In this document: positions 28,257 through 64,000 of the stretch, piece after piece
How the letters are laid out: the number at the start of each line of letters is the position of its first letter
Position numbering within the stretch: the first letter of the stretch is position 1
Assembly: GCA_041659845.1 (NCBI GenBank)
Contig: JBAZXM010000002.1
Location: forward strand, 4 to 64,003
Source: Minisyncoccota bacterium
GTDB taxonomy: Bacteria > Patescibacteriota > Minisyncoccia > Phycocordibacterales > UBA9973
Direction of reading: 5' to 3'
Length of the DNA: 64,000 nt
Program-made: the position numbers and the translations under genes
The notes under the pieces: generated by a model
Databases searched by the model: none
Told to the model about the DNA's origin: nothing
What the model saw: only the letters and a program-made list of their open reading frames with translations

Positions 28257-28289
28257 AATAGATCGCTGCCGTTAAACAATTTTTCTTAT

Positions 28290-32078: not shown

Positions 32079-32082
32079 AAGC

Positions 32083-32116: not shown

Positions 32117-32166
32117 TGTTTCAAAATACAGAAAGAGGATTTTAATGTAAATTTGTAATAATCAAA

Positions 32167-32949: not shown

Positions 32950-32984
32950 AATATAGTGAGATTATTCAAAGTGATGCGTGCCCG

Positions 32985-33245: not shown

Positions 33246-33480
33246 CTTTTCAATAGCTGTGTATTATCTCTGAAACACTCAAAGATCTTGCCTATTTAAC
33301 TATAACACTCTTTTTACAAAAAACAATGTATCCTAAAATTTAAAATGAAATATTAAATCTGTCAATTAATTTGGGTAATGTGCACATACAAATACTAACA
33401 AGGACTGTCCTTACTGGATTTCAATGGCAAGCTTGCAAAATATGGTAATTTTATATAATTTATGAGATAATCATTTTGTA

Positions 33481-33822
33481 ATGAGTAAGATTCATATTTG
33501 GTTTTATATTATTGCCGCTGTCGCAATTGCCGTATCGGCAAATTATATAAGTGTAATTTGGGCGAACAAAGAAAACAGATTTTCGTCACCTTGGCTTTTG
33601 GCTGTCATTTTTATTTCTCCTTTTGTTTTTATTACCTTTGGACTAGTAGCGTCAAAATTAGGACTAGCTGTAAGTTCCGCGACGATTGATTTATTATTGA
33701 CCGTAAGTACAGTTTTGGTTGGACTTTTTGTGCTGGGTGAATGGCATAGTATTTCTTTGTATCAGTATTTTGGAATAGCCTTAGCGTTTGGTGGAATTAT
33801 TTTAATGCAATTTCATAAATAA
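33481..33822 (+). CDS. small 4-TM membrane protein, SMR/DMT-like
   Basis: 113 aa with four hydrophobic helices and a C-terminal ..YQYFGIALAFGGIILMQF. Confidence 0.4.
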   Translation: MSKIHIWFYIIAAVAIAVSANYISVIWANKENRFSSPWLLAVIFISPFVFITFGLVASKLGLAVSSATIDLLLTVSTVLVGLFVLGEWHSISLYQYFGIALAFGGIILMQFHK

Positions 33823-33830
33823 ATTTCTCA

Positions 33831-35675: not shown

Positions 35676-35682
35676 AATTAAA

Positions 35683-37176
35683 ATGAATCAAAATAAAACT
35701 ATATTTAAAAAATTAATGAAGCCAACCGTGATCGGTGTGGTGATTTTATTTATTTCAATCGCTATCATAATCTTTACATCTTGGATGCTCTATAATCGCA
35801 CAGTAGACATTTTAACTCAAAATTTGAGAGATCGTTTGCTGACTATATCAATTACAGGAGCAGCCAATATTGACTCAAAAGATCTTGAAGCACTTCAAGA
35901 AGAAACTGATTGGAAAAAACCAGAATGGGCGCGTGTAGTAAACCAACTACATAAAATAAAATACAGCAATAAAGACATTGTTTTTATGTATATTTTTCGA
36001 AAAATAAAAAGTGACCCTACAAACATGGAGTTTGTAGTAGATGCTGATTCTATTGATCCTTATGCTAATACGAGTGGTGATCCATTAAAATATGTTGATG
36101 TTAACAGAGATGGTAAGGTAGAACCTGATGGTGCTGATAAACTTCAATGGCCTGGACAACCCTATCCTGAAGCAATAGATATCCCAGAAGCATATGAAGC
36201 ATATAATGGACCCATCACAGTTAAAGATCTTTATACTGATGAATACGGTACTGTTTTAACGGGTTATGCTCCAATTAGGGATGAAAATGGAAATACTGTG
36301 GCAATCCTAGCAACAGATGTTAAAGCTGATGATTTTTTCACAATAACAAAACAAACACTACAGCCATTTTTGATATTTATCATACTTCTTTCACTTATTA
36401 TTTCAATCCTCATAATAGTTATTATTCATTCATGGAATAAACATGAAAAGTATCTTAAAGAAGTGAATGAAAAACTTAAAGGTCTCGATAAGCTTAAGAC
36501 TGAATTTCTTTCGCTTGCGTCACACCAGCTTAGGAGCCCGCTTACTGCGATTAAGGGCTATACTTCCATGCTTTTGGAGGGAGATTTCGGAAAGGTGACA
36601 GCTCAGCAAAAAGAAATGATTGATCGAGTATTCCAATCAAGTCAACATCTGACAAAAGTCGTGGAAGACTTGCTAAATGTTTCGAAAATTGAACAAGGTG
36701 GTATGAAGTACGAAATGGCGCCATTTGATATGAATAAAGTCGCTTGTGATCTCTCGAACGATCTTACAGTTAGCGCACAAAAGAAAGGTCTTGAACTTAC
36801 CTGTGAAAACGATCACCAAGAGTCATATATGATAAACGGCGATATGGAAAAAATTCGCCAAGTTGTTCTCAATTTGATTGATAATTCTATCAAGTATACT
36901 GAAAAAGGATTTATTAAAGTCTCGCTATCCAAAAACAATGGTAAGGTTCTATTTGCAGTCTCTGATTCCGGAATGGGCATGACTCCGGAAATTAAAGCAT
37001 CGCTATTCCAGAAATTCTCTCGAGGTGAAGGTGGAAAGGTGAATACTGGCGGATCAGGCTTGGGGCTATATTTGGCAAAAGAAATCGTTGAGGCTCACCA
37101 CGGCCGCGTATGGGTGGAATCCGCAGGCCTGGGGCTTGGTTCTACATTTATCGTTGAACTGAAGGGGGTGGAGTAG
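35683..37176 (+). CDS. sensor histidine kinase (two TM helices flanking a periplasmic Cache-like domain, then HisKA plus HATPase)
   Basis: H-box LASHQLRSPLTAIKGYTSML and G-boxes GGSGLGLYLAKEIVEAHHGRVWVES. No response regulator lies adjacent. Confidence 0.8.
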   Translation: MNQNKTIFKKLMKPTVIGVVILFISIAIIIFTSWMLYNRTVDILTQNLRDRLLTISITGAANIDSKDLEALQEETDWKKPEWARVVNQLHKIKYSNKDIVFMYIFRKIKSDPTNMEFVVDADSIDPYANTSGDPLKYVDVNRDGKVEPDGADKLQWPGQPYPEAIDIPEAYEAYNGPITVKDLYTDEYGTVLTGYAPIRDENGNTVAILATDVKADDFFTITKQTLQPFLIFIILLSLIISILIIVIIHSWNKHEKYLKEVNEKLKGLDKLKTEFLSLASHQLRSPLTAIKGYTSMLLEGDFGKVTAQQKEMIDRVFQSSQHLTKVVEDLLNVSKIEQGGMKYEMAPFDMNKVACDLSNDLTVSAQKKGLELTCENDHQESYMINGDMEKIRQVVLNLIDNSIKYTEKGFIKVSLSKNNGKVLFAVSDSGMGMTPEIKASLFQKFSRGEGGKVNTGGSGLGLYLAKEIVEAHHGRVWVESAGLGLGSTFIVELKGVE

Positions 37177-37195
37177 GAATATTTGTATAAATAAA

Positions 37196-37690
37196 ATGAT
37201 AATAAATAAAATAATAGTAGAAAAAGAATTTGAATTTCGTGTTGCTAATAAGAAAGACGTTGATTTTTTATTAGGTTTAATAAACGAACCTGAAATAAAT
37301 GAATATTTGGTTAATCCAGCTGAGCAACCTATATCAAAAAAACAAGAATTAGATTGGATACAAGATTATATCAATTCTAATACAAGTATCGCCCTCATTG
37401 TTAAATTTAAAAATAAACGAGTGGGTGTAATTTCTGTTGACGACATAAACAAAAAAGATGGAAGTGCAAGTTTTGGTTTAATTATTAAAAAAGATTCTAG
37501 AGGTATGGGAATAGGTAAAGATGTGATAAAAATTCTTACAAATAAAGTTTCAAAAAAAATAAAAGTTAAAAAATTCTATTCTTTTATTAAGAAAACTAAC
37601 ACAAGAAGTATTGCTTTAGTTAAAAGTGTTGGTTTTGTTTTAAATAAAGAAAAATCTAAAAAGAATCTTGTCTATTTCGAATTTATATAG
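37196..37690 (+). CDS. GNAT family N-acetyltransferase
   Basis: ..RVGVISV.. and RGMGIGKDVIKIL (acetyl-CoA binding motif A). Confidence 0.55.
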   Translation: MIINKIIVEKEFEFRVANKKDVDFLLGLINEPEINEYLVNPAEQPISKKQELDWIQDYINSNTSIALIVKFKNKRVGVISVDDINKKDGSASFGLIIKKDSRGMGIGKDVIKILTNKVSKKIKVKKFYSFIKKTNTRSIALVKSVGFVLNKEKSKKNLVYFEFI

Positions 37691-37694
37691 AAAT

Positions 37695-37727
37695 AAAAAA
37701 ACACCTACTATTTATAGTAGGTGTTTG
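37695..37727. terminator. bidirectional terminator between the convergent GNAT and queC genes
   Basis: AAAACACCTACTA-tttat-AGTAGGTGTTT. Confidence 0.6.
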
Positions 37728-37740
37728 ACATAGTAATGAA

Positions 37741-38451
37741 TTAAAAAGATTTTTGAAGTACTCTTTTTTTATTTTGTTTTATATTTAGAGCATTAATCGC
37801 TGATTGTCTTTCAATACAACCTTGGCATTTACCACAATGATTTTCTCTGCTATGTAAGCAACTCCATGTGTCCTCATTGTTCATTCCAGCTTCAATACCT
37901 TTTTTGATTAATTCAGACTTACTTATTCCAATAAATGGAATTACAATAGTAACCTGGTAACCTGAAACATGCAGCATTTTATTGAAAGTATCAATATAAT
38001 CAGTTATTGAATTATCCCAATTGTCGTCCTTATGAACAGCCCAAACAATTTCGTTGAATCCATGCGATACTGCATATACGGCACTTAATAAATGCATTGT
38101 TTGAAGACTAAGTGGTGCTTCAATTTTTCCATCAGGAGTACACGAGGTTTTACCTAAAAAACCAAAAGGTTTACGTTTCCCAGGCTTATTTCCCCCACCC
38201 ATTCCAATTGTTATTAAGGGAATATCAGAAAATAACTGGTCTAATTGAGATACATCAATAATTTTATGCTGTACATTACATTGATTTGCAATAATTTTTG
38301 CACAGTCAATTTCCCTTGAATTATCAGTCATTTTGCTTGCTAAGAAGCTTAAGCACTGAATTTCATCTGAAGTTTCTTTTTGCATATTTAAAATAAAAAT
38401 TGCAGCAGAAGAATCTGGTCCCCCAGACAGTAAAATAATGGTCTTTTTCAT
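37741..38451 (-). CDS. queC: 7-cyano-7-deazaguanine synthase QueC
   Basis: PP-loop LLSGGPDSS and a C-terminal Zn motif HCGKCQGCIERQ. Confidence 0.6.
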   Translation of the reverse strand: MKKTIILLSGGPDSSAAIFILNMQKETSDEIQCLSFLASKMTDNSREIDCAKIIANQCNVQHKIIDVSQLDQLFSDIPLITIGMGGGNKPGKRKPFGFLGKTSCTPDGKIEAPLSLQTMHLLSAVYAVSHGFNEIVWAVHKDDNWDNSITDYIDTFNKMLHVSGYQVTIVIPFIGISKSELIKKGIEAGMNNEDTWSCLHSRENHCGKCQGCIERQSAINALNIKQNKKRVLQKSF

Positions 38452-38513
38452 ACTTATTTATATTTAAGAGAACTCTTACGATATGTAAGTTTATTCTAGT
38501 ATCACTATACAGA

Positions 38514-45522: not shown

Positions 45523-47364
45523 ATGAAAATAAAAAATACAGAAGACAATTATACATTGCAAGGACTTCTTGATTTTTCTAAGATTTTACAAAACTTAAAA
45601 AAATCTATTTCTTTTGCATTCAAATCCGACAAGGCGCGAGTAATCGTCCTTATTACTATTGCCGTGATCACTGCGGTTATTCCGTATCTGCAAAACGGAC
45701 TTTTCGGAAAGCTTATTGATTCGACAATCAATTACAAAGTTGAGGGTACTGGGTTACAGGGAATTTTATTCACAGTAGTGCTATTGATTATTGCTACTGC
45801 TATTCCTAATATAGCCAGCCTTATTAAAAGTTTTGTTGATACGAATTTTCGCTTTAATCTTACTCAATTTATAGAAATTTATTTTTTGAAGAAAATAAGT
45901 TCTCTGGATATTGCAACAATAGAAAGTACGGAATATCAGGAATTAACTCAAAAGGCCAATGAACGAGGGTCGATGAGTATTTATCAACTCATTAGTTTTT
46001 CTATTGATAATTTCTCTAACCTTATTGGGGTTATTGTTTCTCTTGTTATTCTGGGTTTTATAGATCAAACACTTTTGTTATACGCATTCTTGGGGGCAAT
46101 TCCTGCACTTTACGTTCAACTTAAATATGGAAAAGATATTTATTGGATTTGGGACCTTAACTCCGGAAATCGAAGAAAGTATTTTAATCGCCGACACCAT
46201 TTTCAAAATACGACTGCATTGATTGAGGTTAAGCTTTATCAGCTTGCAAAAAATTTCCTTGGTGAGATAAAGAATATTCTAAGTAGTTTTAATGATGAAT
46301 TGAAATCAACCGAACGCAATAAGCTCACATGGGAGCTCTTGGCTCTTGGGGTGTTTGTTGTTTTTCTTGGAATGGGTATGTGGCGTATTGTTCACCTTAC
46401 GATAAGCGGTACTATGCCTATTGGCCAAATGTTTTTCGCATATACCACATATAGAGGATTTAAGGGGACGCTTATAGAATTTTTCCGAAAGATTGGCTGG
46501 ATGTCAGAGTTTTCTAATTATGTTGGCTACTGGTTTAAAATAGATGATTTGGTTCCTAAAATTCAAAATGAAAAAGACGCTTACAATCTCCATATCAAAG
46601 ACTTACCACCTCGTATTGAGTTTAAAAATGTCAGCTTCAGATATGATGTTGCAAGCAATAAAAGTTATGCCATCAAAGATCTTTCTTTTGTAGTTGAACC
46701 TGGGCAAAAGATTGCTATTGTTGGGCTCTCTGGAGCAGGAAAGACAACACTCATAAAGCTTTTGTGCAGAATTTATGATCCAGAGTCTGGTCATATTTTG
46801 ATTAACGGAAAAGATTTGCGGGAAATCAATCTTGATTCTTGGCAAGAACAATTGGCTGTAATGTTTCAAGATTTTGCCACATATGAATTTACAGTTCGTG
46901 AATCTATTGCTTTCGGTAATCCAAACATTGAACCTAATGAAAAGAAAATAAAACAAGCTGCCGAAATGGCAAAGGCACATGATTTTATTGACCGGTTACC
47001 CAAAAAGTATGACCAGCTATTATGGAAGGGATTTGAAGATGGAGTAGATCTTTCAAAGGGTGAACGCCAGCGTATGGCGCTTGCGCGAGTTCTTTATCGT
47101 GAATCACCAATTACGATCCTAGATGAGCCAACTGCATCTGTCGACGCTCTAGCTGAACAGGAAATATTCGGAACACTTGAGAAACTTCCAGGTGATAGAA
47201 CAGTAATTCTTATTTCTCACCGCTTCAGTACTGTAAAAAATACAGACAATATTCTTGTTATTGAGCATGGTCAATTGATTGAAGAAGGAAGTCATTTGAA
47301 ATTGATGAAAGAAAAAGGTAAATATGCTGAGCTGTACAAACTTCAAAAAGAGTCCTACGATTAA
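45523..47364 (+). CDS. ABC transporter, fused permease and ATPase (exporter, MsbA-like)
   Basis: Six-TM N-terminus, Walker A GLSGAGKTT, signature LSKGERQRMALAR and Walker B ILDEPT. Confidence 0.85.
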   Translation: MKIKNTEDNYTLQGLLDFSKILQNLKKSISFAFKSDKARVIVLITIAVITAVIPYLQNGLFGKLIDSTINYKVEGTGLQGILFTVVLLIIATAIPNIASLIKSFVDTNFRFNLTQFIEIYFLKKISSLDIATIESTEYQELTQKANERGSMSIYQLISFSIDNFSNLIGVIVSLVILGFIDQTLLLYAFLGAIPALYVQLKYGKDIYWIWDLNSGNRRKYFNRRHHFQNTTALIEVKLYQLAKNFLGEIKNILSSFNDELKSTERNKLTWELLALGVFVVFLGMGMWRIVHLTISGTMPIGQMFFAYTTYRGFKGTLIEFFRKIGWMSEFSNYVGYWFKIDDLVPKIQNEKDAYNLHIKDLPPRIEFKNVSFRYDVASNKSYAIKDLSFVVEPGQKIAIVGLSGAGKTTLIKLLCRIYDPESGHILINGKDLREINLDSWQEQLAVMFQDFATYEFTVRESIAFGNPNIEPNEKKIKQAAEMAKAHDFIDRLPKKYDQLLWKGFEDGVDLSKGERQRMALARVLYRESPITILDEPTASVDALAEQEIFGTLEKLPGDRTVILISHRFSTVKNTDNILVIEHGQLIEEGSHLKLMKEKGKYAELYKLQKESYD

Positions 47365-55144: not shown

Positions 55145-57865
55145 ATGATAAGCCTAAATGAAATTAGAAATCGTTCAGTTACTTTTGCTCATGAGTGGGA
55201 GCGCGAAGTTAATGAAGACGCAGAAGCTAAGAGTTTTTGGGATGATTTTTTTAATGTTTTTGGGATGTCTAGACGCCGTGTTGCTTCTTTTGAATATCAA
55301 GTAAAGAAACAAGATGGTTCACAGGGTTATATTGATGTTTTATGGAAGGGTGTAATGCTTGCGGAGCACAAATCTCGTGGCAAAAGTCTAGACAAAGCAT
55401 ATTCTCAGGCTAAAGGGTATTTTCCAGGATTAAAAGATGAAGAATTACCTAGATATATAGTTGTCTCTGATTTCGAAAAAATTCGTCTATACGATTCAGA
55501 AAAAGACACCCAAGAAGAGTTTTTACTCAAAGATCTGCATAAGCACATAGATCTTTTTAATTTTATTTCTGGATATACATCTGTAAATTATGAAAAAGAA
55601 GAAGAAGCAAGTATTAAAGCAGCACAACTCATGGCTGATTTTCATAATGAAATTGCAAAAACAGGATACAGTGGCCATGATCTAGAAGTTTTCCTTATTC
55701 GTATTTTATTTTGTTTATTTGCTGATGACACAGGAATTTTTCCTAAAAATCATTTTCGTACTTACATAGAAAAAAGAATAAACCAAGATGGTTCTGATCT
55801 TGGCATAAAACTTTTAGAAATTTTTCATGTTCTTAATACCCCCAGAGAAAAAAGGCAAACAAACTTAGATGAACAACTAATGGCATTTGATTATATTGAT
55901 GGAGGTGTTTTTAAAGAACAAATTGCATCTATATCACTTGACGCTACTGCGTATTTAAAATTATTAAAATGCTGCAGTTTTAACTGGTCTCAAATATCAG
56001 TATCTATTTTCGGATCCTTGTTTCAGGGAGTAATGGAGGAAAAAGAAAGAAGACAGTTAGGAGCACACTATACTTCTGAGAAAAATATTATTAAAGTTAT
56101 TCAACCACTTTTTCTTGATGAACTATATGTTGAATTTGACAGAGTTAAATACGACAAGAAAAAACTCGATATATTTCATGAAAAATTATCAAAATTGAAC
56201 TTTTTAGATCCAGCTTGTGGGTGTGGAAATTTCTTAGTTATTGCTTACAGAGAACTTCGCAAGCTTGAAATTGAAATCTTACTTAAAAAAAGAACAAAAA
56301 AAGATGCAAGTATGAGAATGTTTGGAGCTGAAGAACTTTCTATCATAAATGTAAATCAATTTTATGGGATTGAAATAGAAGAATTTCCTGTTCTTGTTGC
56401 ACGTGTAGCGATGTACTTAGTTGACCATCAGATGAATCAATTACTTTCAGAAAAATTTGGGGTTATTTACGCGCGTATTCCACTTCGTGAACCAGCTACC
56501 ATTGTACACGCTGATGCTCTCACTACTGACTGGGAAAGTGTTGTCCCAAAAAATGATCTATCTTATATCCTAGGTAATCCACCATTTGTGGGTGCTCGTC
56601 TCATGGGAAAGGAACAGAAAAAAAATTTTTTGAGGATTTTTGATAATATGAAGGGTGCCGGAAATCTTGATTTTGTAACAGCATGGTATGAAAAAGCATC
56701 AAGATATATGGAAAATACACATATTAAAACTGCCTTTGTTTCTACTAATAGCATTTGCCAAGGTGAGCAAGTTGCTATTTTATGGAAAAGATTAAAAGAA
56801 AAATATCATGTAAGTATTCATTTTGCGCACCAAACATTTAAGTGGAGTAATGATGCTCCAGGAGTGGCTGCAGTTTATTGTATTATTGTCGGGTTTGCCC
56901 ACGAAGATTCTTTAAAAAATTATTTATATGAATACGAAACAGTAAGAAGTGAACCTAAAGAAAAGCAAGTCGCACATATTAATGGTTATTTAGTAGCAGG
57001 GGATGACATATTTATTGAAAATAGAACTGAGTCAATTTCCAATGCACCAAAAATTAATTATGGAAGTTTTGCTCTAGATGATGGAAATTATACTCTATCA
57101 GAATCAGATAAAGATGAAATAATTGAGTCTAGTTCTTTAGCAGAAAAATATATACGGCCATTTATTGGTGGAAGAGAATTGCTTCATAACGAGAAAAGAT
57201 ATTGTTTATGGTTAAAAGGTGCTGACCCAACGGAATTAAAAAAAATTCCGAAAATAATCGAGCGAATAGAAAAAGTAAAGATATGGAGGCAGAATAGTGA
57301 AAGAAAAAATACAGTTGAATTAGCAAGAACTCCAACTCTTTTTGCTGAGATAAGACAGCCTGAAACTTCTTATATTGCTTTTCCCACAGTTTCATCAGAA
57401 AATAGAGACTATATTCCTATTGCCTACTTAGATAAAAATATAATTGCCTCAAATCAAGTTTATGTCATTCCTAACGCTACCCTTTTTGATTTTGGTATTT
57501 TAGAATCAGTAATGCATATGACATGGGTATTCTATGTTTGTGGTAAATTAGAAAGTCGTTTTCGATATTCTAGTAAATTAGTTTATAATAACTTTCCTTG
57601 GCCAGAAAGAATTTCTGATGAGCAAAATAAGAAAGTTGAAGTTTGTGCACAAGGAGTTCTTGATGCACGCCTAAAGTTTACTCATAGCTCACTCGCTGAT
57701 TTATATGATCCTAATACAATGCCTCCTGAGCTTGTAAAAGCACACGAAAACCTTGACATAGCAGTAGATGCTTGTTATGGAAAGAAATTTAAAAACAAAG
57801 AAGAAAGAATTGAGTTTTTGTTTGAGTTGTATAAGAGGTATACTAAAACGACATGGCAAGAGTAA
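55145..57865 (+). CDS. MmeI-family Type IIL restriction-modification enzyme (single-chain endonuclease plus N6-adenine methyltransferase, with a target-recognition region)
   Basis: N-terminus MISLNEIRNRSVTFAHEWERE..AKSFWDDFFNVFG; PD-(D/E)xK motif YIDVLWKGVMLAEHKSRGKSL (D..ExK); methyltransferase motif I LDPACGCGNFL and motif IV ILGNPPFVGA. 906 aa. Confidence 0.7.
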   Translation: MISLNEIRNRSVTFAHEWEREVNEDAEAKSFWDDFFNVFGMSRRRVASFEYQVKKQDGSQGYIDVLWKGVMLAEHKSRGKSLDKAYSQAKGYFPGLKDEELPRYIVVSDFEKIRLYDSEKDTQEEFLLKDLHKHIDLFNFISGYTSVNYEKEEEASIKAAQLMADFHNEIAKTGYSGHDLEVFLIRILFCLFADDTGIFPKNHFRTYIEKRINQDGSDLGIKLLEIFHVLNTPREKRQTNLDEQLMAFDYIDGGVFKEQIASISLDATAYLKLLKCCSFNWSQISVSIFGSLFQGVMEEKERRQLGAHYTSEKNIIKVIQPLFLDELYVEFDRVKYDKKKLDIFHEKLSKLNFLDPACGCGNFLVIAYRELRKLEIEILLKKRTKKDASMRMFGAEELSIINVNQFYGIEIEEFPVLVARVAMYLVDHQMNQLLSEKFGVIYARIPLREPATIVHADALTTDWESVVPKNDLSYILGNPPFVGARLMGKEQKKNFLRIFDNMKGAGNLDFVTAWYEKASRYMENTHIKTAFVSTNSICQGEQVAILWKRLKEKYHVSIHFAHQTFKWSNDAPGVAAVYCIIVGFAHEDSLKNYLYEYETVRSEPKEKQVAHINGYLVAGDDIFIENRTESISNAPKINYGSFALDDGNYTLSESDKDEIIESSSLAEKYIRPFIGGRELLHNEKRYCLWLKGADPTELKKIPKIIERIEKVKIWRQNSERKNTVELARTPTLFAEIRQPETSYIAFPTVSSENRDYIPIAYLDKNIIASNQVYVIPNATLFDFGILESVMHMTWVFYVCGKLESRFRYSSKLVYNNFPWPERISDEQNKKVEVCAQGVLDARLKFTHSSLADLYDPNTMPPELVKAHENLDIAVDACYGKKFKNKEERIEFLFELYKRYTKTTWQE

Positions 57866-58071
57866 ATTTTGATTCAATTTTTATAATACATCCAGATGGA
57901 AGTCTTGAACCACGACAGCGTGTTCGTGTTGGCGGTGTTGAATTTGGACCAGGGGTAAGATTCCAAAATACTAGCTTTGGTGGTATTAATTTTCACGATC
58001 CACAATTTTTTAATAAAGACTTAGAAATTAAAACAGACAATGATACAACAGCTATAACTGGAGTTTATTAA
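57853..58071 (+). CDS. hypothetical small protein
   Basis: 72-aa ORF that overlaps the end of the RM gene. Weak support. Confidence 0.25.
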   Translation: MARVNFDSIFIIHPDGSLEPRQRVRVGGVEFGPGVRFQNTSFGGINFHDPQFFNKDLEIKTDNDTTAITGVY

Positions 58072-58074
58072 ATC

Positions 58075-58374
58075 ATGATCAATGAAAAACCAAAATATAA
58101 AATATTTGATCCTGTTGCTGATATTGCTAGTAAGTTTGATTTTTATATAAAAATTGTAATAGGTGTACTTGTGGTTGGCTTTATTAGCATGCTTTTAATG
58201 GTTGGAGGAATAATTTTAGATGCATGGCATTTCAACTCTGCGACCTATAGAGAATATTCAAAAAAAACGGAGTCAGTTGAAACTATGCAAAAAATTAATC
58301 AAGAATTACTAGAGCAAAATAAAAGAAATCAAGAAATAATTATTGAATTACAAAAACGACTTTTAAATAAATAA
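58075..58374 (+). CDS. hypothetical small membrane protein
   Basis: 99 aa with one TM (IVIGVLVVGFISMLLMVGGIIL). A terminator follows. Confidence 0.4.
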   Translation: MINEKPKYKIFDPVADIASKFDFYIKIVIGVLVVGFISMLLMVGGIILDAWHFNSATYREYSKKTESVETMQKINQELLEQNKRNQEIIIELQKRLLNK

Positions 58375-58401
58375 AAATACCGCACTTAGTGCGGTATTTT
58401 T
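58373..58401. terminator. rho-independent terminator
   Basis: AAAAATACCGCAC-tta-GTGCGGTATTTTT. Confidence 0.7.
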
Positions 58402-58517
58402 ATGAGCGAGGCATACCTTTCTTGCGCCTTCATAGGATGTTGGTTCTGAAAGTCTGTGTTCTGATTATCTCTTCCCATCAAGCTCTCAATAAGCCAGTAT
58501 CTTTTGCTCAAGAACCT

Positions 58518-58694
58518 CTAAACAAGGTCTACTATATCTGTTGTCTTACCATTTGCCTGATTCCAATTAAGCGATTTTTTTACACCTTGTTTTGAATCAT
58601 AGGCCTCACTACTCATACAAACAATTTCTCCATTGCTTGATTTTAGAATCCAATAGTATTGAGCCTTATTATCTTTCTTGATGTAGTATGTTGC
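58518..58694 (-). CDS. YegP-like (DUF1508) small protein
   Basis: YYIKKDNKAQYYWILKSSNGEIVCMSSEAYDSKQGVKKSL fits the DUF1508 repeat pattern. Confidence 0.45.
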   Translation of the reverse strand, partial: ATYYIKKDNKAQYYWILKSSNGEIVCMSSEAYDSKQGVKKSLNWNQANGKTTDIVDLV

Positions 58695-58816
58695 CATATA
58701 ACCGTATAAGTATTTTGTGATAAATACCAGTTCGACCAATCTGGCATACTCACTTTACATTCTTACATTATCCACAGTCAAGTTGCAAAAAGTGGACAAT
58801 ATGTTAATATCTACGC

Positions 58817-59542
58817 ATGTCTATGTGGATTAAAATAAAGCGCAAAGAAGCCGGTTTTTCCCAGTCGGAAACAGCTAAAAGTCTCGGTATTTCTCGCCCA
58901 ACATACACAAAGCTCGAGCAAGGTCTCGCAAAACCTACAGAGGAACAAAAAGTTCTTCTGGCTCGTATTTTCAATACTTCTTATGAATCTGTTGCTAAAA
59001 ATAGTATGGAGAAGAAAATTATTTCTGAAACCATTTATCCTCAAAGTATACCAAAAGAAAGTGAAGCAAAGTTTAAACAAGTCTTGCTTTACATTGTGAG
59101 CAAGGTTGGTAGTCGGCCAAATATTGGTCAAACTGCCATTTATAAAATTCTTTACTTTATTGATTTTGACTTTTACGAGAAGTTTCAAAAATACTTGATT
59201 GGTGCAACATATATCAAAAATACTCATGGACCGAGTCCAATATCTTTTGCGAAAATCTCGCGTGATTTGGAAGGTCAAGGTAAATTAGTTGAAGTACGGA
59301 GTAAATATTTTAACTATGATCAGAAAAAATACCTAATTACTTCCGAGCCTCAGGTCTCGCTTCTCTCTGCAGAAGAATTGAAGCATATTGATGATGAGCT
59401 TGTTCGACTCGCATCAAAATCAGCAAAAGAATTATCAGATATGTCGCATATTGATACACCGTGGCGTGTGGCTAAGGATAGAGAAGTGCTAAATTATCGT
59501 CACGTATTTTACAGACCGGATGAAACATCTGTATTGAATTAA
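58817..59542 (+). CDS. antitoxin: XRE-family HTH fused to a Panacea (DUF4065, SocA-like) domain
   Basis: N-terminal HTH (AGFSQSETAKSLGISRPTYTKLEQG), then QTAIYKILYFIDFDFYEKFQKYLIGATYIKNTHGP, which is Panacea-like. Confidence 0.55.
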   Translation: MSMWIKIKRKEAGFSQSETAKSLGISRPTYTKLEQGLAKPTEEQKVLLARIFNTSYESVAKNSMEKKIISETIYPQSIPKESEAKFKQVLLYIVSKVGSRPNIGQTAIYKILYFIDFDFYEKFQKYLIGATYIKNTHGPSPISFAKISRDLEGQGKLVEVRSKYFNYDQKKYLITSEPQVSLLSAEELKHIDDELVRLASKSAKELSDMSHIDTPWRVAKDREVLNYRHVFYRPDETSVLN

Positions 59543-59546
59543 TACT

Positions 59547-59891
59547 ATGGCAACCTTCAGTCAGTTACCGGAATTTGAGAAAGAATTAAAAAAGCTTTCT
59601 AAAAAATATTCAAGTTTGGAGAACGATATAGATGATATCAAGCCTGTTCTTTTGAGTTGCCCAACAGGCATAGGAAAAAATTTTACTATCATACATTCCG
59701 ATAATGAAATAAAGATAATAAAGGTGCGAATTCATTGCGAATCACTTCATACGAGAACAATCCGACTTATATATGCGTACCATAAAAATAAAATAGAATT
59801 CATTTATATTGAGCTTTATTTTAAAGGAAATAAAGAAAACGAAAACAAAGATAGAATTGAAGAATATTTAAGAGGTATCAAATCATGCTAA
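59547..59891 (+). CDS. HigB/RelE-like type II toxin (candidate PanT partner)
   Basis: 114 aa. ..IKIIKVRI..RLIYAYHKNKIEFIYIELYFKGNKENE.. is a RelE/HigB-like beta-core. It starts 5 nt after the antitoxin gene. Confidence 0.45.
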   Translation: MATFSQLPEFEKELKKLSKKYSSLENDIDDIKPVLLSCPTGIGKNFTIIHSDNEIKIIKVRIHCESLHTRTIRLIYAYHKNKIEFIYIELYFKGNKENENKDRIEEYLRGIKSC

Positions 59892-59900
59892 AATAACCCT

Positions 59901-60650
59901 ATGTCCGAATTCTATAATCCCAATCGAACAAGGAATATATATGATCCGAAGGAGGAGAAGCCTTTTAAGCTGTCTCGGTCAAAGATTGAACTATATATGA
60001 GTTGTCCGAAGTGCCTTTATTTGGATCGCAGGCTTGGCGTAGGTAGACCACCAGGATTTCCATTTGCTCTCAATTCTGCCGTAGACACTCTATTAAAAAA
60101 GGAATTTGATATACATAGAGCGAAGCAGGTTGCGCACCCGCTTATGAAAGCTTACGGCCTCGATGCTGTGCCTTTTAAACACAAAATGATGAATGAGTGG
60201 CGGGAGAATTTCAAAGGCGTGCAATACTTGCATGAACCTACCAACTTCATTATGACTGGAGCGGTGGATGACCTATGGCACGACAAGGACGGGAATATCA
60301 TTGTTGTAGATTACAAAGCGACAAGCAAACCATCTAAAGTTACACTTGATGCTGACTGGCAGATGGGCTACAAACGCCAGATGGAAATGTATCAATGGCT
60401 GTTGCGCAAGAATGGCTTGAAAGTTTCAGACACCGGCTACTTTGTATACTGTAATGGTAAAACAGATCGTGAAGTCTTTGATGGAAAATTGGAATTTGAT
60501 ATTGATATACTGCCTTATACCGGAGACGATTCATGGGTGGAAGGCGTATTGTATGACATCAAAAGTTGTCTTGATGGTGAAATGCCTGAGCCAAGCTCTG
60601 AGTGTGATTATTGCACATACTGTAATGCAAGGGAAGAAATTGAGAAATAA
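59901..60650 (+). CDS. Cas4/RecB-like PD-(D/E)xK nuclease with Fe-S cysteine cluster (stand-alone)
   Basis: N-terminal Cys pair (YMSCPKCLYLD), motif II TGAVDDLWHD, motif III IIVVDYKAT, a QxxxY motif (RQMEMYQ) and C-terminal CDYCTYC. Confidence 0.55.
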   Translation: MSEFYNPNRTRNIYDPKEEKPFKLSRSKIELYMSCPKCLYLDRRLGVGRPPGFPFALNSAVDTLLKKEFDIHRAKQVAHPLMKAYGLDAVPFKHKMMNEWRENFKGVQYLHEPTNFIMTGAVDDLWHDKDGNIIVVDYKATSKPSKVTLDADWQMGYKRQMEMYQWLLRKNGLKVSDTGYFVYCNGKTDREVFDGKLEFDIDILPYTGDDSWVEGVLYDIKSCLDGEMPEPSSECDYCTYCNAREEIEK

Positions 60651-60651
60651 A

Positions 60652-60915
60652 ATGCAATCATTCCAAGAGAAAGTCTTAAGTATTGTTAAAAAAATTCCTA
60701 AGGGTAAGGTCTTAACTTATAAACAGGTTGCAGAGAAGACGGGGAGTGTGAATGCCTCGCGGGCGGTGGGGAGTATATTGAAGAAGAACTATAATCCGGA
60801 TATTCCATGTCATCGAGTGATCAGAAGTAATGGCGTTGCTGGTGAATACAATCGTGGTCGATCTGAAAAAATCCGCAAACTCAAATCCGAAGGTATAATT
60901 TTCCCAAAGCCCTAA
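60652..60915 (+). CDS. O6-alkylguanine-DNA alkyltransferase DNA-binding/active-site domain protein (short Ogt/MGMT-like)
   Basis: ..VLTYKQVAEKTGSVNASRAVGSILKKNYNPDIPCHRVIRSNG.. carries the PCHRV active-site motif. The internal ATG of the longer overlapping ORF was used. Confidence 0.65.
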   Translation: MQSFQEKVLSIVKKIPKGKVLTYKQVAEKTGSVNASRAVGSILKKNYNPDIPCHRVIRSNGVAGEYNRGRSEKIRKLKSEGIIFPKP

Positions 60916-60955
60916 TTTCTTAACCCATCAACATCTTTCTCCTCTCCCAAATCAT

Positions 60956-60986
60956 ATCTCTAATTCGCTCGAATAGGCGAATAGTT
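60956..60986. promoter_or_regulatory. 31-bp operator-like element, copy A (ATCTCTAATTCGCTCGAATAGGCGAATAGTT), upstream of arsR
   Basis: Contains the inverted repeat ATTCGC-N8-GCGAAT. It is 29/31 identical to copy B. TATAAT at 60996-61001. Confidence 0.55.
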
Positions 60987-61040
60987 AAGCTGGGTGTATA
61001 ATTGATAGATAACAAAATGGAGTATATAAAATAAATAAGT

Positions 61041-61307
61041 ATGAAAGAAAAAGAATTGGAAAAAATATTTAAAGCCCTTGCTAACAAACGCCGTCTTGCG
61101 ATTCTTAAATATATCAAATCAAAAAATCGCGCATCCGTAGGGGATATTGCTGGCGCGATCAAACGCTCATTCAAGGCGACATCCAAGCACTTGATGATTT
61201 TGCGTAATGTAGACATTCTCGATCGCGAGCAAGAGAGTTTGCAAATGTATTACAGTCTAAATAAACCACTACCGAGCATTATTAATGCAACTCTCTCTGT
61301 TCTGTAA
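61041..61307 (+). CDS. ArsR/SmtB family transcriptional regulator
   Basis: ..LANKRRLAILKYI..ASVGDIAGAIKRSFKATSKHLMILRNVDIL.. is the ArsR HTH. Confidence 0.7.
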   Translation: MKEKELEKIFKALANKRRLAILKYIKSKNRASVGDIAGAIKRSFKATSKHLMILRNVDILDREQESLQMYYSLNKPLPSIINATLSVL

Positions 61308-61354
61308 ATATTCATAAAACCTTGTTTTTTTCAAGCCCTATTTTTTAGTATTCA

Positions 61355-61385
61355 ATCTCTAATTCGCGCGAATAAGCGAATAGTT
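61355..61385. promoter_or_regulatory. 31-bp operator-like element, copy B (ATCTCTAATTCGCGCGAATAAGCGAATAGTT), upstream of the dehydrogenase gene
   Basis: Same IR architecture. It sits 53 nt before the ATG at 61438, with TATAAT at 61425-61430. Confidence 0.55.
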
Positions 61386-61437
61386 GGTTTGGGTTCAAAT
61401 AATAAAATTAGATTGCCATAATGCTATAATATAAATT

Positions 61438-62685
61438 ATGAAGAACTTTATTTTTTCCAAAGCATTTAAAATAATTATTATCATTCTGGTTATTGCCGGA
61501 ATTGGTTTGTATCTTTTCAAAACTAAAATCGGTAGCATTAATATACCCACACAAACTCCAGTGTCTGAAACAACTCTACCGAAAGAAGTTGAAGATGCAT
61601 TTATTGCTTCCAACTTTTCAATCCCTGAAGGATTTGGGTTAAATATATTCGCCTCAAATGTCACCGGTGCTCGCGCGCTCGAGATTGATTCGAAGGGGAG
61701 GATTCTCGTTAGTCAGACTAGCGAAGGAAGCATTACAGCTCTTACTGATACAGATAGTGATGGTGTGGCTGATGAACATAAAGTACTCATAAAAGGGCTC
61801 AAGAAGCCCCACGGTATGGCATTCCGATGCGATGGTGCTCTTGGTGCTGAAACATGCTTGCTTTATGTTGCTGAATCAAATGCTCTTTCGCAATTTGATT
61901 ATGATTCCGCAAATCCCTCACTTTCAAATAAAAAGAGGCTCGCTAGTATTTCCTCATCTATCTCAGATAATCACTTCACTCGATCTTTACTATTTATGCC
62001 GTCACCAAATGAAGATACACTGCTTATTTCCGTCGGTTCATCATGTAATGTGTGTATTGAAAAAGATACAGAGTATGCAAAAATTTTGGCCTATGATATT
62101 AAGACAAAAAAACTTACTGAATTTGCTCGCGGTCTTCGAAATTCTGTATTTATGAATTTGAACCCCGTTACCGGTGATGTATGGGCGACAGAAATGGGCA
62201 GGGATTTGTTAGGCGACAATATTCCGCCCGATGAAATAAATATTATCAAAAAAGATAAAAATTACGGATGGCCTAATTGCTACGGCAAAAATATCCATGA
62301 TGATAATTTTGATAAAAATGTATACATACGGAATCCCTGCATGGAGCCGTTTGAAACAGAGTCTCATGTAGATCTACAAGCTCATTCTGCGCCGCTCGGC
62401 TTGTCATTTATCCCGGAAGAAGGCTGGCCAGAATCGCATTGGTATAATCTCCTTGTGGCATATCACGGCTCGTGGAACAGATCAGAACCTACAGGATATA
62501 AGATTGTACGGATTAAACTTGATGCGAAAGGGAAGTATCTAGGCACAGAAGATTTCATCACTGGCTGGCTCACGAAAGATGGTAAGAAGCTCGGTAGGCC
62601 TGCGGATATTAAAATTTTCTCTGGTGGTACTGGGTATATTACCGATGATGGAGCTGGAAGAGTGTATCGTCTAATAAAAAAATAA
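61438..62685 (+). CDS. PQQ-dependent soluble sugar (glucose/sorbosone) dehydrogenase family protein, exported
   Basis: N-terminal TM/signal and a beta-propeller with the hallmark ..KNYGWPNCYG.. motif. Confidence 0.65.
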   Translation: MKNFIFSKAFKIIIIILVIAGIGLYLFKTKIGSINIPTQTPVSETTLPKEVEDAFIASNFSIPEGFGLNIFASNVTGARALEIDSKGRILVSQTSEGSITALTDTDSDGVADEHKVLIKGLKKPHGMAFRCDGALGAETCLLYVAESNALSQFDYDSANPSLSNKKRLASISSSISDNHFTRSLLFMPSPNEDTLLISVGSSCNVCIEKDTEYAKILAYDIKTKKLTEFARGLRNSVFMNLNPVTGDVWATEMGRDLLGDNIPPDEINIIKKDKNYGWPNCYGKNIHDDNFDKNVYIRNPCMEPFETESHVDLQAHSAPLGLSFIPEEGWPESHWYNLLVAYHGSWNRSEPTGYKIVRIKLDAKGKYLGTEDFITGWLTKDGKKLGRPADIKIFSGGTGYITDDGAGRVYRLIKK

Positions 62686-62704
62686 AAGGAGAATAGGTGA
62701 GTTT

Positions 62705-62714
62705 TGTGTATAAT
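62705..62714 (+). promoter_or_regulatory. extended -10 promoter TGTGTATAAT giving a near-leaderless helicase mRNA
   Basis: The -10 ends 10 nt before the ATG at 62725. Confidence 0.4.
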
Positions 62715-62724
62715 AGATTTCATT

Positions 62725-64000
62725 ATGACTCAAGCTGAAGCGCTTAATATTTTAAAATCTGGAGCTAATGTGTATTTGACCGGTAATGCCGGATCGGGCA
62801 AAACATATGTGCTTAACCAATACATCGGTTATTTAAAAGCTCATGGCGTAGAGGTGGCAGTAACTGCTTCTACTGGCATCGCCGCGACTCATATGAACGG
62901 TATCACTATCCATTCGTGGTCTGGGCTTGGTATCAGAGACAGTCTTTCTGATTGGGACCTTGAAGTACTTCAGGAAAAACAAAATTTATTTAAAAGATTC
63001 GAGAAAACGAAAGTCTTGATAATCGATGAAGTCTCGATGCTTCATGCGCGGCAATTAGATATGATTGATCGCATTGCACGGGCATTCAAGCGAAGTGACA
63101 AGCCCTTCGGCGGGATGCAAGTAGTGCTTTCCGGTGATTTTTTTCAATTACCACCGATTACGAGAGATGCGAGTGAGGTATGTTTCGTAGATCAATCAAA
63201 TGCTTGGAAATGCATGGATATTAAAATCTGTTATTTGGAAGAGCAACATCGTCAAGAAAAAGGCGGCATATTTACAAAAATTTTAAATGAAATTCGAAGC
63301 GCGAATGTATCAGAAGAAACAATGCAACATTTTCGCAGTCGATATAGAAAAGCGCCCGAAGGAAGCGTGATGCCGACCAAGCTCTACACGCATAATGCAG
63401 ATGTGGATGCACTTAATAATCGAGAACTTGAAAAATTACCAGGTGATATGGAAGTGTATGAAATGACCTCGCGAGGGAAGGGAAACTTAGTGGAAAATTT
63501 AAAGAAAAGCTGTCTCGCTCCGGAGACGCTTCGCTTAAAAGAGGGTGCGGCAGTGATGTTTGTCAAAAATAATTTTGAAAAAGGATATGCGAACGGCACA
63601 CTCGGAACTGTTATTGGTTTTGATGATTCAGATGCAAGTTTGCCTATTGTGAAATTGAAAGACGGAAGGGAAATCACAGTTTCTTCCGAGAGTTGGGCGG
63701 TGGAGGAGGATGGAAAAGTGAAAGCTGAGATTGACCAAATTCCTCTCCGTCTCGCTTGGGCTATTACAGTCCACAAAAGCCAAGGGATGAGCCTCGATGC
63801 CGCCGAAATCGACCTTTCCAAATCATTCGTCGCGGGCCAAGGGTATGTGGCTCTTTCGCGCCTAAGATCACTCGAGGGGCTTTGCCTCATGGGGCTCAAT
63901 AAAACTGCGCTTGAGGTGGATGCTAGAATTCTAGATCTTGACCAAGAACTTAAAAATCGTTCCGAAGAAATAATGGAAGTTTTTGAAAACCTTGATGAAA
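62725..64000 (+). CDS. PIF1/RecD-family ATP-dependent DNA helicase, 5' portion (continues past the window end)
   Basis: Walker A LTGNAGSGKTYVL, Walker B VLIIDEVSM, ..VVLSGDFFQLPPI.., and C-terminal ..AITVHKSQGMSLD... The frame is open to nt 64000. Confidence 0.75.
   Translation, partial: MTQAEALNILKSGANVYLTGNAGSGKTYVLNQYIGYLKAHGVEVAVTASTGIAATHMNGITIHSWSGLGIRDSLSDWDLEVLQEKQNLFKRFEKTKVLIIDEVSMLHARQLDMIDRIARAFKRSDKPFGGMQVVLSGDFFQLPPITRDASEVCFVDQSNAWKCMDIKICYLEEQHRQEKGGIFTKILNEIRSANVSEETMQHFRSRYRKAPEGSVMPTKLYTHNADVDALNNRELEKLPGDMEVYEMTSRGKGNLVENLKKSCLAPETLRLKEGAAVMFVKNNFEKGYANGTLGTVIGFDDSDASLPIVKLKDGREITVSSESWAVEEDGKVKAEIDQIPLRLAWAITVHKSQGMSLDAAEIDLSKSFVAGQGYVALSRLRSLEGLCLMGLNKTALEVDARILDLDQELKNRSEEIMEVFENLDE

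Follow-up and report, generated by a model that had tools for sequence, protein, structure and literature searches.

A predicted MmeI-family Type IIL restriction-modification enzyme and the conserved, unannotated two-gene cassette that follows it in a Paceibacterota bacterium

The gene at positions 55145 to 57865 of the DNA analysed here (a stretch of 64,000 nucleotides, referred to below as the window) is predicted to encode an MmeI-family Type IIL restriction-modification (RM) enzyme on one polypeptide, an assignment that is fully supported by sequence comparison. Very likely the wider reading also holds as a whole, namely that this is a functional MmeI-family (Type IIL / IIG-IIS) enzyme directed at a site other than TCCRAC, encoded in an operon and situated in an acquired defence islet. 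The enzyme itself is ordinary but intact; the unexpected part, and the most interesting feature of the locus, is the pair of small genes orf72 and orf99 directly downstream, which the initial annotation had passed over. The enzyme and its domains are as follows.

55145..57865, + strand: MmeI-family Type IIL RM enzyme, 906 aa (ORF, Pfam, PADLOC, alignment with PDB 5HR4)
55172..55660, + strand: N-terminal PD-(D/E)xK endonuclease domain, aa 10-172, catalytic D64, E74 and K76 (MmeI_N, 2.6e-43)
55676..55912, + strand: helical spacer domain, aa 178-256, which sets the cleavage reach (MmeI_hel, 3.8e-21)
56144..56929, + strand: gamma-class N6-adenine methyltransferase (MTase) domain, aa 334-595 (MmeI_Mtase, 3.6e-91; Eco57I, 2.5e-7; N6_Mtase, 4.5e-6)
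56999..57607, + strand: target recognition domain (TRD), aa 619-821 (MmeI_TRD, 1.6e-72; residues mapped onto MmeI contacts)
57614..57850, + strand: MmeI C-terminal domain, aa 824-902 (MmeI_C, 7.1e-30)

All five MmeI Pfam domains occur in canonical order (nuclease, helical spacer, MTase, TRD, C-terminal domain), each scoring far over its gathering score, and similarity to MmeI extends along the entire protein. The structure of MmeI (PDB 5HR4) is matched by HMMER with 968 bits (E=2.6e-290; residues 2-901 vs 3-904), with 49% identity across 895 aligned residues and without a single indel in the helical spacer, and the PADLOC Type IIG model PDLC03598 (REase_MTase_IIG) covers the full length with 1171 bits. 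Members of the MmeI family are recognised by PD-(D/E)xK residues in the N-terminal region that align with D70, E80 and K82 of MmeI (PMC2731913); here D64, E74 and K76, within the motif IDVLWKGVMLAEHKS at aa 63-77, align with these residues and are intact. The MTase carries the AdoMet-binding motif I (DPACGCGNFL at aa 355) and the catalytic motif NPPF (aa 478) of the gamma class. The protein is self-contained, in that no MTase or S-subunit domain occurs in the neighbours on either side, and the large ORFs elsewhere in the 64-kb window are housekeeping genes among which PADLOC and Pfam detected no MTase, S subunit, brx, pgl or drm gene. An identical protein is already present at NCBI as ‘DNA methyltransferase [Candidatus Paceibacterota bacterium]’, and more than 8000 homologs were found. 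The initial annotation is thus borne out as regards the enzyme: it had described a single 906-aa polypeptide, for which an ATG-initiated ORF lies at exactly these coordinates; it had listed the nuclease, DPACGCGNFL and NPPF motifs, all of which are present; it had combined them into an MmeI-type nuclease, an N6-adenine MTase and a C-terminal TRD, as the domain matches and the 5HR4 alignment also do; and it had held a separate methylase to be unnecessary, in keeping with the lack of a partner MTase or S gene within 64 kb.

Residue-to-base rules published for the family (PMC4833311; PMC2731914) were applied to the TRD specificity residues, which are R720/A734/E735, Y639/F642, T748/N770, Q771/R807, V749/L802 and E803/R805. 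Positions 1, 5 and 6 of the site follow from rules as stated in those papers: C is predicted at position 1 from R720 and E735, the methylated A at position 5, and C at position 6 from E803-x-R805. Positions 2 to 4 were inferred. Position 2 is probably A, with F642 replacing the C-specifying Lys; position 3 is probably C or Y, from T748 and N770; and position 4 is expected to be a purine, probably G, from R807 and the bulky Q771. The predicted site, C-(A?)-(C/Y)-(G)-A-C, is unlike the TCCRAC of MmeI, and CACGAC would be the best single guess. When checked on CstMI (AAGGAG), whose residues are A/G/Q, F/M, K/D, L/R and K/D, the rules gave the correct readout. The Deinococcus radiophilus pRadio4 enzyme was dropped as a DrdIV (TACGAC) calibrator; from its K774/S810 pair C would be expected at position 4 instead of G, which makes its identity as DrdIV doubtful. 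In a test of motif avoidance covering 4096 hexamers under an order-4 Markov model, which has little power in 64 kb, no C-N-Y-R-A-C candidate was significantly depleted; within the limits of that low power, the lowest candidate was CCTGAC, at rank 265 of 4096 (z=-1.7), and the 13 occurrences of CACGAC compare with an expectation of 12.2.

Among the 120 closest homologs, 41 specificity signatures were counted, including some that match known specificities (RGE|FM|RD|TR|KD for CAGRAG and RAE|FM|LN|KN|KD for CATCAG). In P0002, the closest relative at 84% identity, KxD stands in place of ExR, and these differences, read from the residues, indicate natural specificity switching among the homologs. 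The combination Y/F, T/N and Q/R is common to only 17 of the 120 (eight with ExR, nine with KxD) and finds no match among the residue pairs described for characterised MmeI-family enzymes (PMC4833311; PMC2731914; PMC2731913), so that the specificity may be one not yet characterised. The minor-groove MTase residues K487/S488/K489 of MmeI are A/R/L in the 906-aa protein. The TRD as a whole is the most variable region in the Patescibacteria clade; the idea that the specificity residues are the most variable columns in that clade was rejected, as they rank 64-443 of 902 and none falls in the top 5%.

By analogy with the biochemistry of the MmeI family, from which activity, cleavage distance and single-strand methylation are all taken, the site read by the TRD would be asymmetric and 6 bp long, and its penultimate adenine would flip into the MTase pocket. 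On host DNA this adenine would be N6-methylated in one strand only at the expense of AdoMet, and unmodified incoming DNA would be cut by the nuclease domain about 20/18 nt downstream, with AdoMet as cofactor.

The gene for the enzyme is followed closely by two small genes and a terminator.

57853..58071, + strand: orf72, conserved small all-beta protein (homologs, AF2)
58075..58374, + strand: orf99, single-pass membrane protein, TM at about aa 25-49 (24 distinct downstream partners aligned, hydropathy)
58371..58403, no strand assigned: bidirectional intrinsic terminator, perfect 16-nt inverted repeat with A/T runs at the sides (15-pair stem, 100% complementary)

The ATG of orf72 overlaps the stop codon of the MmeI-type gene by 13 nt, which would couple its translation to the 3' end of that gene, and orf99 starts 3 nt after orf72, so placed that the three genes would share one transcript ending at the strong terminator, which closes both this operon and the convergent YegP gene. 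orf72 has 58 close homologs, and a profile search yielded 402 representatives, nearly all of 70-76 aa; it has no match in Pfam, PADLOC, NCBIfam or PHROG, and its AF2 model (pLDDT 86.6) has no fold match in PDB or BFVD. A possible reading of orf72 as a short pentapeptide-repeat DNA mimic, suggested by F/L at every fifth residue, was rejected: Pfam Pentapeptide_3 reached only E=0.058, and the reading is unsupported because the confident AF2 model matches neither the PRP nor any other fold in PDB or BFVD. orf99 carries a conserved juxtamembrane motif, D-x-[WF]-H-F-N-S-A-x-Y-K-E-Y-S, and a C-terminal coiled coil, and was found by tblastn in 35 of 39 orf72-bearing loci (L085-L123).

The two genes form a conserved, unannotated cassette, and this finding is new. 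In 22 of 32 distinct contexts the cassette lies inside or directly after an RM operon, and its partners belong to six unrelated types, namely MmeI-type IIL, PF01555 mod, Type ISP-like, Eco57I-like Type IIG, D12 Dam-like MTase and DpnII endonuclease. The PF01555 mod contexts often include a ResIII res gene, with the cassette between mod and res in six cases. Of about 21 other MmeI loci in Patescibacteria, only 2 have the cassette. RadC was observed upstream of several of the RM operons that contain the cassette. That orf72 and orf99 are an undescribed accessory module of RM operons in Patescibacteria is put forward tentatively, as a possibility somewhat short of even; the pair might act by regulating RM enzymes, by placing them at the membrane, or as an abortive-infection effector that backs them up.

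The features beyond the terminator are as follows.

58518..58739, - strand: YegP-like DUF1508 protein (Pfam DUF1508, 3.6e-9; GC3 0.32)
58817..59542, + strand: HTH_3 + SocA/Panacea-domain antitoxin, PanA-type (SocA_Panacea, 5e-13; HTH_3, 2.1e-11)
59547..59891, + strand: RelE/ParE-superfamily (HigB2-like) toxin, 114 aa (homologs, AF2, Foldseek)
59901..60650, + strand: Cas4-like PD-(D/E)xK nuclease, right-hand flank of the islet (PDDEXK_1, 6.4e-14; GC3 0.43)
Between the Cas4-like and ArsR-type genes: Ogt, an MGMT DNA_binding_1 protein (8.2e-26)
61041-61307: ArsR-type HTH protein
61438-62685: GSDH-like protein (dehydrogenase)
From 62725, running off the window: PIF1 helicase (5.4e-40)

The true start of the YegP-like gene is probably an internal Met, giving about 58 aa. 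Behind it lies a co-directional pair arranged as in Panacea systems, antitoxin first, with 4 nt between the stop of the antitoxin and the start of the toxin. By sequence the 114-aa toxin matches nothing in Pfam or NCBIfam; it has 283 homologs, several labelled RelE by JGI, and its AF2 model (pLDDT 82.9) shows a beta-alpha-alpha-beta4 topology for which the best Foldseek matches are HigB2 (8a0x/5ja8; prob 1.00, TM 0.56-0.61), HigB1, YoeB and ParE2. This RelE/HigB2 fold, together with the SocA_Panacea match, supports the Panacea-type toxin-antitoxin pair proposed in the initial annotation, and toxin-antitoxin function is predicted from sequence and model. The pair recurs downstream of MmeI homologs at two other loci (L076, L016), and the antitoxin is also present at a third (L006).

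Per-gene GC3 is 0.12-0.32 in 55145-59891 and 0.33-0.43 in both flanks. The islet therefore comprises 55145-59891 only, about 4.75 kb between an S9-peptidase gene and the Cas4-like gene, and consists of the MmeI-orf72-orf99 operon, the YegP-like gene and the Panacea/RelE-type toxin-antitoxin pair. The genes to its right (Cas4-like, Ogt, ArsR, dehydrogenase and PIF1 helicase, the last of 558 aa and following the dehydrogenase on short Logan contigs) resemble the host in composition, and they show no synteny with MmeI homologs elsewhere. A Cas4-like homolog of 66% identity lies directly after a Type III RM + orf72/orf99 island at another locus (L121). None of the 80 MmeI-homolog loci has the housekeeping genes that lie upstream here, but the orf72/orf99 pair and the Panacea pair do recur among them. 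No integrase, transposase, tRNA, att site, convincing flanking direct repeat or Rfam match was found, and a small, defence-related islet, probably acquired horizontally by this ultra-small Paceibacterota bacterium, is proposed from composition and variable synteny. The defence/mobile island of 55145-64000 proposed earlier accordingly keeps its named neighbours, all of which are real genes, and loses its extent; ‘mobile’ was not upheld, variable context being its sole basis.

Three other readings of the enzyme were weighed. Its MTase/TRD core is common to the methyltransferases PglX, DrmMI and MAD2, and PADLOC returned partial matches, with 141 bits for mad2 and, over the C-terminal part alone, 125 bits for DrmMI, besides faint ones to PglX, from which it might be taken not for a self-contained enzyme but for a methylation-only specificity subunit of BREX, DISARM or MADS; an ABC-type ATPase at 45523-47364 that matches the PADLOC mad3 model (9e-31) would be in line with this. 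That match, however, is to a generic ABC ATPase domain only, 8 kb away behind housekeeping genes, and was rejected. The same search gives the Type IIG model its 1171 bits over the full length as against 141 or fewer for mad2, DrmMI and PglX, and the NCBIfam scores lie far below their cut-offs (BREX-6 PglX 21.5 against 900, BREX-1 PglX 17.9 against 500, MAD2 15 against 720). The N-terminal nuclease with its DEK triad, which a PglX would lack, is present. No BrxA/B/C/L, PglZ or DrmA-E was found by PADLOC or Pfam among the large ORFs of the window, the DNA past 64000 being seen as far as the PIF1 helicase, and neither the full-length match nor the adjacent drm or mad partners of a DrmMI or MAD2 was seen. 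PglX homology in the company of brx genes, which the initial annotation had named as the finding that would speak against it, comes to 18-21 bits with no brx, pgl or DISARM gene in 64 kb, and a subunit role is exceedingly improbable.

A decaying or domesticated remnant, perhaps an orphan adenine methyltransferase acting as an epigenetic regulator with its nuclease silent, would accord with the bare NCBI name, with the lack of motif avoidance in the 64-kb window, and with the streamlining of CPR genomes and the cost that RM enzymes modifying a single strand can carry. Against it, the frame is uninterrupted through 906 aa, the catalytic residues of nuclease and MTase are all intact, with the DEK triad kept in 120 of 120 close homologs, and variability in the nuclease domain ranks among the lowest of all the domains (mean entropy 0.85 bits vs 1.54 for TRD-N), which suggests purifying selection on it; a remnant of this kind is very unlikely. 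It has been proposed, in a 2026 preprint on the methyltransferases of CPR bacteria (10.64898/2026.07.13.738296), that their restriction enzymes provide nucleotides, and it may be speculated that the main role here is nutritional, the enzyme cutting DNA taken up by a nucleotide-auxotrophic cell for salvage, and membrane-anchored orf99 with orf72 tying it to the site of DNA entry. The co-transcription of a membrane protein with the enzyme and the RadC genes upstream of several cassette-bearing operons are in its favour; an enzyme that makes one cut per site pair would not degrade DNA, however, the toxin-antitoxin pair is classic defence-island content, and the cassette is shared by so few of the Patescibacteria MmeI loci, all of which leaves this role improbable. 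A self-contained MmeI-family enzyme serving defence is the reading retained here.

The value of this enzyme, a probably active MmeI-family member (as judged from its sequence) from the CPR radiation, is modest. Its TRD residue combination lies outside those in the cited MmeI-family papers, and for this reason a new long-reach Type IIS specificity could be gained from it; the enzyme also adds a data point to the residue-to-base code used in engineering these enzymes. It further suggests that ultra-small bacteria, which are mostly CRISPR-poor, exchange single-gene RM enzymes and give them new targets through the same ExR/KxD-type swaps that have been engineered in the laboratory. Should it be confirmed, the orf72/orf99 cassette would matter more, since a two-gene module joined to six kinds of RM gene would point to regulation of RM systems at a level so far overlooked, or else to a new small module for defence or addiction.

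The Type IIL prototype, MmeI of Methylophilus methylotrophus (PDB 5HR4), shares the five-domain order at a similar length (919 aa, against 906), and the two have identical nuclease triads and MTase motifs I and IV, the ExR pair for C at position 6 and an Arg for the purine at position 4. They differ in host (a proteobacterium for MmeI, a CPR bacterium here), in the minor-groove triplet (K-S-K in MmeI, A-R-L here), in TRD-N, which is only 39% identical, and in the TRD residues (R/A/E vs A/F/Y, Y/F vs Y/K, T/N vs E/N and Q/R vs A/R, MmeI second), and because of these differences at positions 1-4 the site should not be TCCRAC. BREX PglX and DISARM DrmMI are distantly related in the MTase and TRD core, as the weak PADLOC matches indicate. 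They methylate N6-adenine in a single strand at asymmetric 6-bp sites. Neither has an N-terminal PD-ExK nuclease and both rely on multi-gene systems, in contrast to the present enzyme, which has its nuclease and no partner genes. Among characterised MmeI-family enzymes, SdeAI (CAGRAG), PlaDI (CATCAG), NlaCI (CATCAC) and PspPRI (CCYCAG) have C as the first base of their sites (PMC2731913); R at 723 and E at 738, which go with this C, are shared with the present enzyme, and the residue code is the same in the Patescibacteria clade, with CAGRAG- and CATCAG-type signatures among the 120 closest homologs. Like the PanA/PanT pairs (PMC8832971) and HigB2/RelE toxins, the islet has an HTH + Panacea antitoxin followed 4 nt on by a toxin of RelE/ParE fold; as a point of difference, this toxin is without a Pfam or NCBIfam match by sequence and belongs to a RelE-like family that is specific to Paceibacterota and numbers at least 283 members.

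The open reading frame at exactly 55145-57865 on the forward strand (ATG start, 906 aa) encodes a protein with five MmeI-specific Pfam domains in canonical order:

aa 10-172, MmeI_N (Pfam 2.6e-43)
aa 178-256, MmeI_hel (Pfam 3.8e-21)
aa 334-595, MmeI_Mtase (Pfam 3.6e-91)
aa 619-821, MmeI_TRD (Pfam 1.6e-72)
aa 824-902, MmeI_C (Pfam 7.1e-30)

The MmeI-family assignment made in the initial annotation was confirmed by these coordinates and domains and by the sole PDB sequence match, MmeI itself (5HR4; E=2.6e-290; residues 2-901 against 3-904 of the chain; 49% identical across the 895 positions aligned). The three motifs quoted there were also found (IDVLWKGVMLAEHKS at aa 63-77, DPACGCGNFL at aa 355 and NPPF at aa 478), and the match to PADLOC Type IIG model PDLC03598 is full-length (1171 bits). 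Family membership was judged by the two features defined by Morgan et al. (PMC2731913), a PD-(D/E)xK motif aligned with MmeI D70/E80/K82 and likeness along the entire length of MmeI; the query possesses both, since D64, E74 and K76 align with that triad, and it passes every test of membership that sequence can address. The triad is kept in 120/120 of the closest homologs, and few regions vary as little as the nuclease domain (mean entropy 0.85 bits vs 1.54 for TRD-N). No separate methyltransferase, S subunit or partner gene was found in either flank or among the other large ORFs of the window, in agreement with the earlier statement that no separate methylase is needed. The enzyme, of Type IIL, is intact and probably active.

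The same protein is already deposited at NCBI, annotated merely as a methyltransferase ('MAG: DNA methyltransferase [Candidatus Paceibacterota bacterium]', on a contig of 71,885 bp). At E<1e-50 it has over 8000 protein matches; the closest one short of full identity shares 84% of residues, relatives in about 20 other Patescibacteria genomes are 61-76% identical, and those in Bacteroidota and other groups about 50%. Restriction-modification (RM) enzymes are expected in CPR bacteria (literature including a preprint), and the query is a further instance of a known family.

A BREX origin, with PglX-type homology and accompanying brx genes, had been named as the reading that would displace this assignment, and it fails: the query scores 17.9 and 21.5 bits against curated PglX cut-offs of 500 and 900. 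MAD2 fares no better (15 bits against 720), and PADLOC aligns the query only in part with DrmMI (125 bits) and mad2 (141 bits). A 613-aa ABC-type ATPase (45523-47364) matches PADLOC mad3 of MADS at 9e-31; this match is limited to the ABC domain and was judged generic, and the gene sits 8 kb from the query with housekeeping genes between. The remaining genes of the window are housekeeping (DnaK, AlaRS, CysRS, DnaB, AspRS, ScpA/B, MraY-like), together with an RHS-type giant protein. The latter (21018-27149; 2043 aa, with SpvB, FG-GAP and RHS repeats) looks like a polymorphic toxin, and next to it GC content falls to its minimum for the window (0.28 at 27-29 kb), in a stretch with three small ORFs (27159-29252) that are possibly toxin-tip/immunity cassettes. 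A second low-GC block (31000-38500; 0.30-0.35) may likewise have been acquired; it encodes a histidine kinase (35683-37176) and a 614-aa protein whose aldehyde-dehydrogenase domain is partial.

The enzyme had been placed at the head of a defense/mobile island spanning 55145-64000, an extent that did not survive analysis; GC3 and synteny delimit instead a compositional and variable islet at about 55145-59891 (4.75 kb). The border in per-gene GC3 is sharp: values within are 0.20 (MmeI), 0.12 (orf72), 0.17 (orf99), 0.32 (YegP), 0.29 (Panacea) and 0.27 (orf114), against 0.35-0.43 for the genes upstream and host-like values downstream (Cas4-like 0.43, Ogt 0.40, ArsR 0.39, dehydrogenase 0.33, PIF1 0.39). 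None of the 80 homolog loci shares the housekeeping genes upstream, nor YegP, Ogt, the dehydrogenase or the Cas4-like gene; in this set, an MmeI homolog is followed by orf72, with or without orf99, at two loci (L014, L019), by the Panacea/orf114 pair at two (L076, L016, with a related Panacea protein at L006) and by different toxin-antitoxin (TA) pairs at two more (L004, L012). These last are RelB/DinJ-like plus YafQ/RelE-like pairs 3' of Patescibacteria MmeI homologs (L004 13100-13722; L012 13139-13682), and differing TA modules therefore recur beside this RM family. As for mobility, the islet ends have no tRNA, convincing flanking repeats or structured RNA, and a Pfam domain search found no integrase or transposase, so that the 'mobile' character of the islet is no more than inferred.

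Beyond the border, the Cas4-like PDDEXK_1 nuclease (59901-60650; phrog_31195, 1.3e-19) has a 66%-identical homolog at L121 (6597-7349) directly downstream of an island carrying a Type III RM system and orf72/orf99, which suggests that this gene is the conserved flank of a variable defense spot. At the adjacent Ogt locus the listed 157-aa TTG ORF (60442-60915) overlaps the Cas4-like gene; the true gene is probably an 87-aa ATG ORF (60652-60915), which comprises the MGMT DNA-binding/active-site domain alone and keeps the PCHR cysteine.

Within the islet, the TA reading of the Panacea pair gained support from orf114, the 114-aa partner of the antitoxin, which has no match in Pfam/NCBIfam-type searches and comes from a family that numbers at least 283, sometimes labeled RelE by JGI. 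Its predicted fold (beta-alpha-alpha-beta4, pLDDT 82.9) best matches HigB2 in the PDB (prob 1.00, TM 0.56-0.61), followed by HigB1, YoeB and ParE2.

Directly 3' of the enzyme lies a conserved, unannotated cassette (57853-58374) encoding a ~72-aa all-beta protein and a ~100-aa membrane coiled-coil protein. The 13 nt from the orf72 ATG to the end of the MmeI stop codon belong to both genes, and 3 nt separate the orf72 stop from the start of orf99. The operon is closed by a perfect hairpin of 16 nt with T-runs (58371-58403), with the YegP gene converging on it from the other side. Close homologs of orf72 number 58 (70-76 aa, mean column identity 69%), and a profile search against 1.84 billion representatives yielded 402 relatives, almost all of them stand-alone; the AF2 model of orf72, confident at pLDDT 86.6, is all-beta, with no fold match in PDB or BFVD. 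The orf99 protein spans the membrane once, has a coiled coil and a conserved juxtamembrane motif, and accompanies orf72 almost everywhere.

Among the cassette loci compared (including L014, L019 and L085-L123), the cassette lies directly 3' of or inside a same-strand RM operon in 22/32 distinct contexts, usually 2-12 nt away where a methyltransferase directly precedes orf72. Six unrelated kinds of RM gene are covered: PF01555 mod-like methyltransferases (15/22, six of these with the cassette between methyltransferase and ResIII helicase gene), MmeI-type enzymes (3/22), and one each of Type ISP-like, Eco57I-like Type IIG, D12 Dam-like methyltransferase and DpnII endonuclease. Two further contexts are defense-like (SMODS nucleotidyltransferase; Fic/DUF3800) and eight are housekeeping or ambiguous. 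Only 2 of ~21 other Patescibacteria MmeI loci carry it; on both counts together, the cassette appears to seek RM operons, while RM enzymes do not appear to need the cassette. The association is suggestive rather than proven, because 22/32 is a raw count without a background rate over phylogenetically non-independent contexts. The closest copy (L093 5970-6569; 93% and 72% aa identity for orf72 and orf99) follows a mod-res-AAA ATPase operon in place of an MmeI gene, and its 77% nucleotide identity to 57824-58375 covers the cassette alone, from ~30 nt before the orf72 ATG, which would fit a cassette that is transferred in one piece. It could serve RM enzymes as a regulator or membrane anchor, act independently as a TA/Abi-like module, or hitchhike with RM genes as an addiction cassette. 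Several independent contigs (L087, L088, L120, L122) carry a RadC-family gene a few genes 5' of the RM and cassette operon, sometimes with a Phd/ParE TA pair between.

The enzyme would most likely work like MmeI, whose methyltransferase motifs are identical to its own. Domain content and catalytic residues are observed, and family biochemistry (PMC2582602, PMC2731913, PMC4833311) supplies the steps: through the major groove, the TRD would read an asymmetric site whose penultimate adenine would be flipped into the methyltransferase pocket and N6-methylated on one strand only, and the N-terminal nuclease would cut unmodified DNA ~20/18 nt downstream, with AdoMet as cofactor. Since the alignment with MmeI shows no indels in the helical spacer, a similar cleavage reach is expected.

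For the site itself, base-contacting residues of MmeI (Callahan et al.; Morgan and Luyten) were transferred by alignment and read with published rules (PMC4833311/PMC2731914). At position 1, A723/F737/Y738 correspond to R720/A734/E735, and C is predicted because Arg/Lys at 723 and Glu at 738 accompany C:G. At position 2 (Y642/K645 to Y639/F642) the C-specifying Lys is gone; A is plausible, as MmeI K645M gives A and F/M pairs with A in CstMI. Position 3 (E751/N773 to T748/N770) is predicted to be C or Y, since a Glu or Ser paired with Asn specifies C, a Val in that place specifies Y, and Thr combines features of Ser and Val. Position 4 (A774/R810 to Q771/R807) is probably G, given that Arg specifies a purine, a choice narrowed to G by bulk at residue 774. 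Position 5 is predicted to be the methylated A (V749/L802), and position 6 (E806/R808 to E803/R805) C from the ExR pair. The best guess is thus C-A-(C/Y)-G-A-C. The rules give correct bases at 5/5 variable positions of CstMI from pTP10 (AAGGAG), and clade signatures reproduce known specificities, e.g., CAGRAG and CATCAG. The check on site avoidance suggested in the initial annotation found no significant depletion of candidate sites in the window (CACGAC, 13 observed vs 12.2 expected; lowest CCTGAC, z=-1.7), whose 64 kb give such a check little power and leave it uninformative. In a plasmid-borne MmeI-family enzyme (L084, Deinococcus radiophilus pRadio4, NZ_CP086383.1 12882-15701), at the stop codon of which an overlapping TIR-domain gene begins, the position-4 residues K/S predict ...CAC, not the TACGAC of DrdIV.

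The query specificity may be new, as its combination of TRD residues had no match in the literature found. Across the 120 closest homologs there are 41 different specificity signatures; eight homologs have the query signature, and a further nine, among them its closest relative, differ solely by KxD for ExR, a natural counterpart among relatives of the query to the engineered MmeI E806K/R808D switch.
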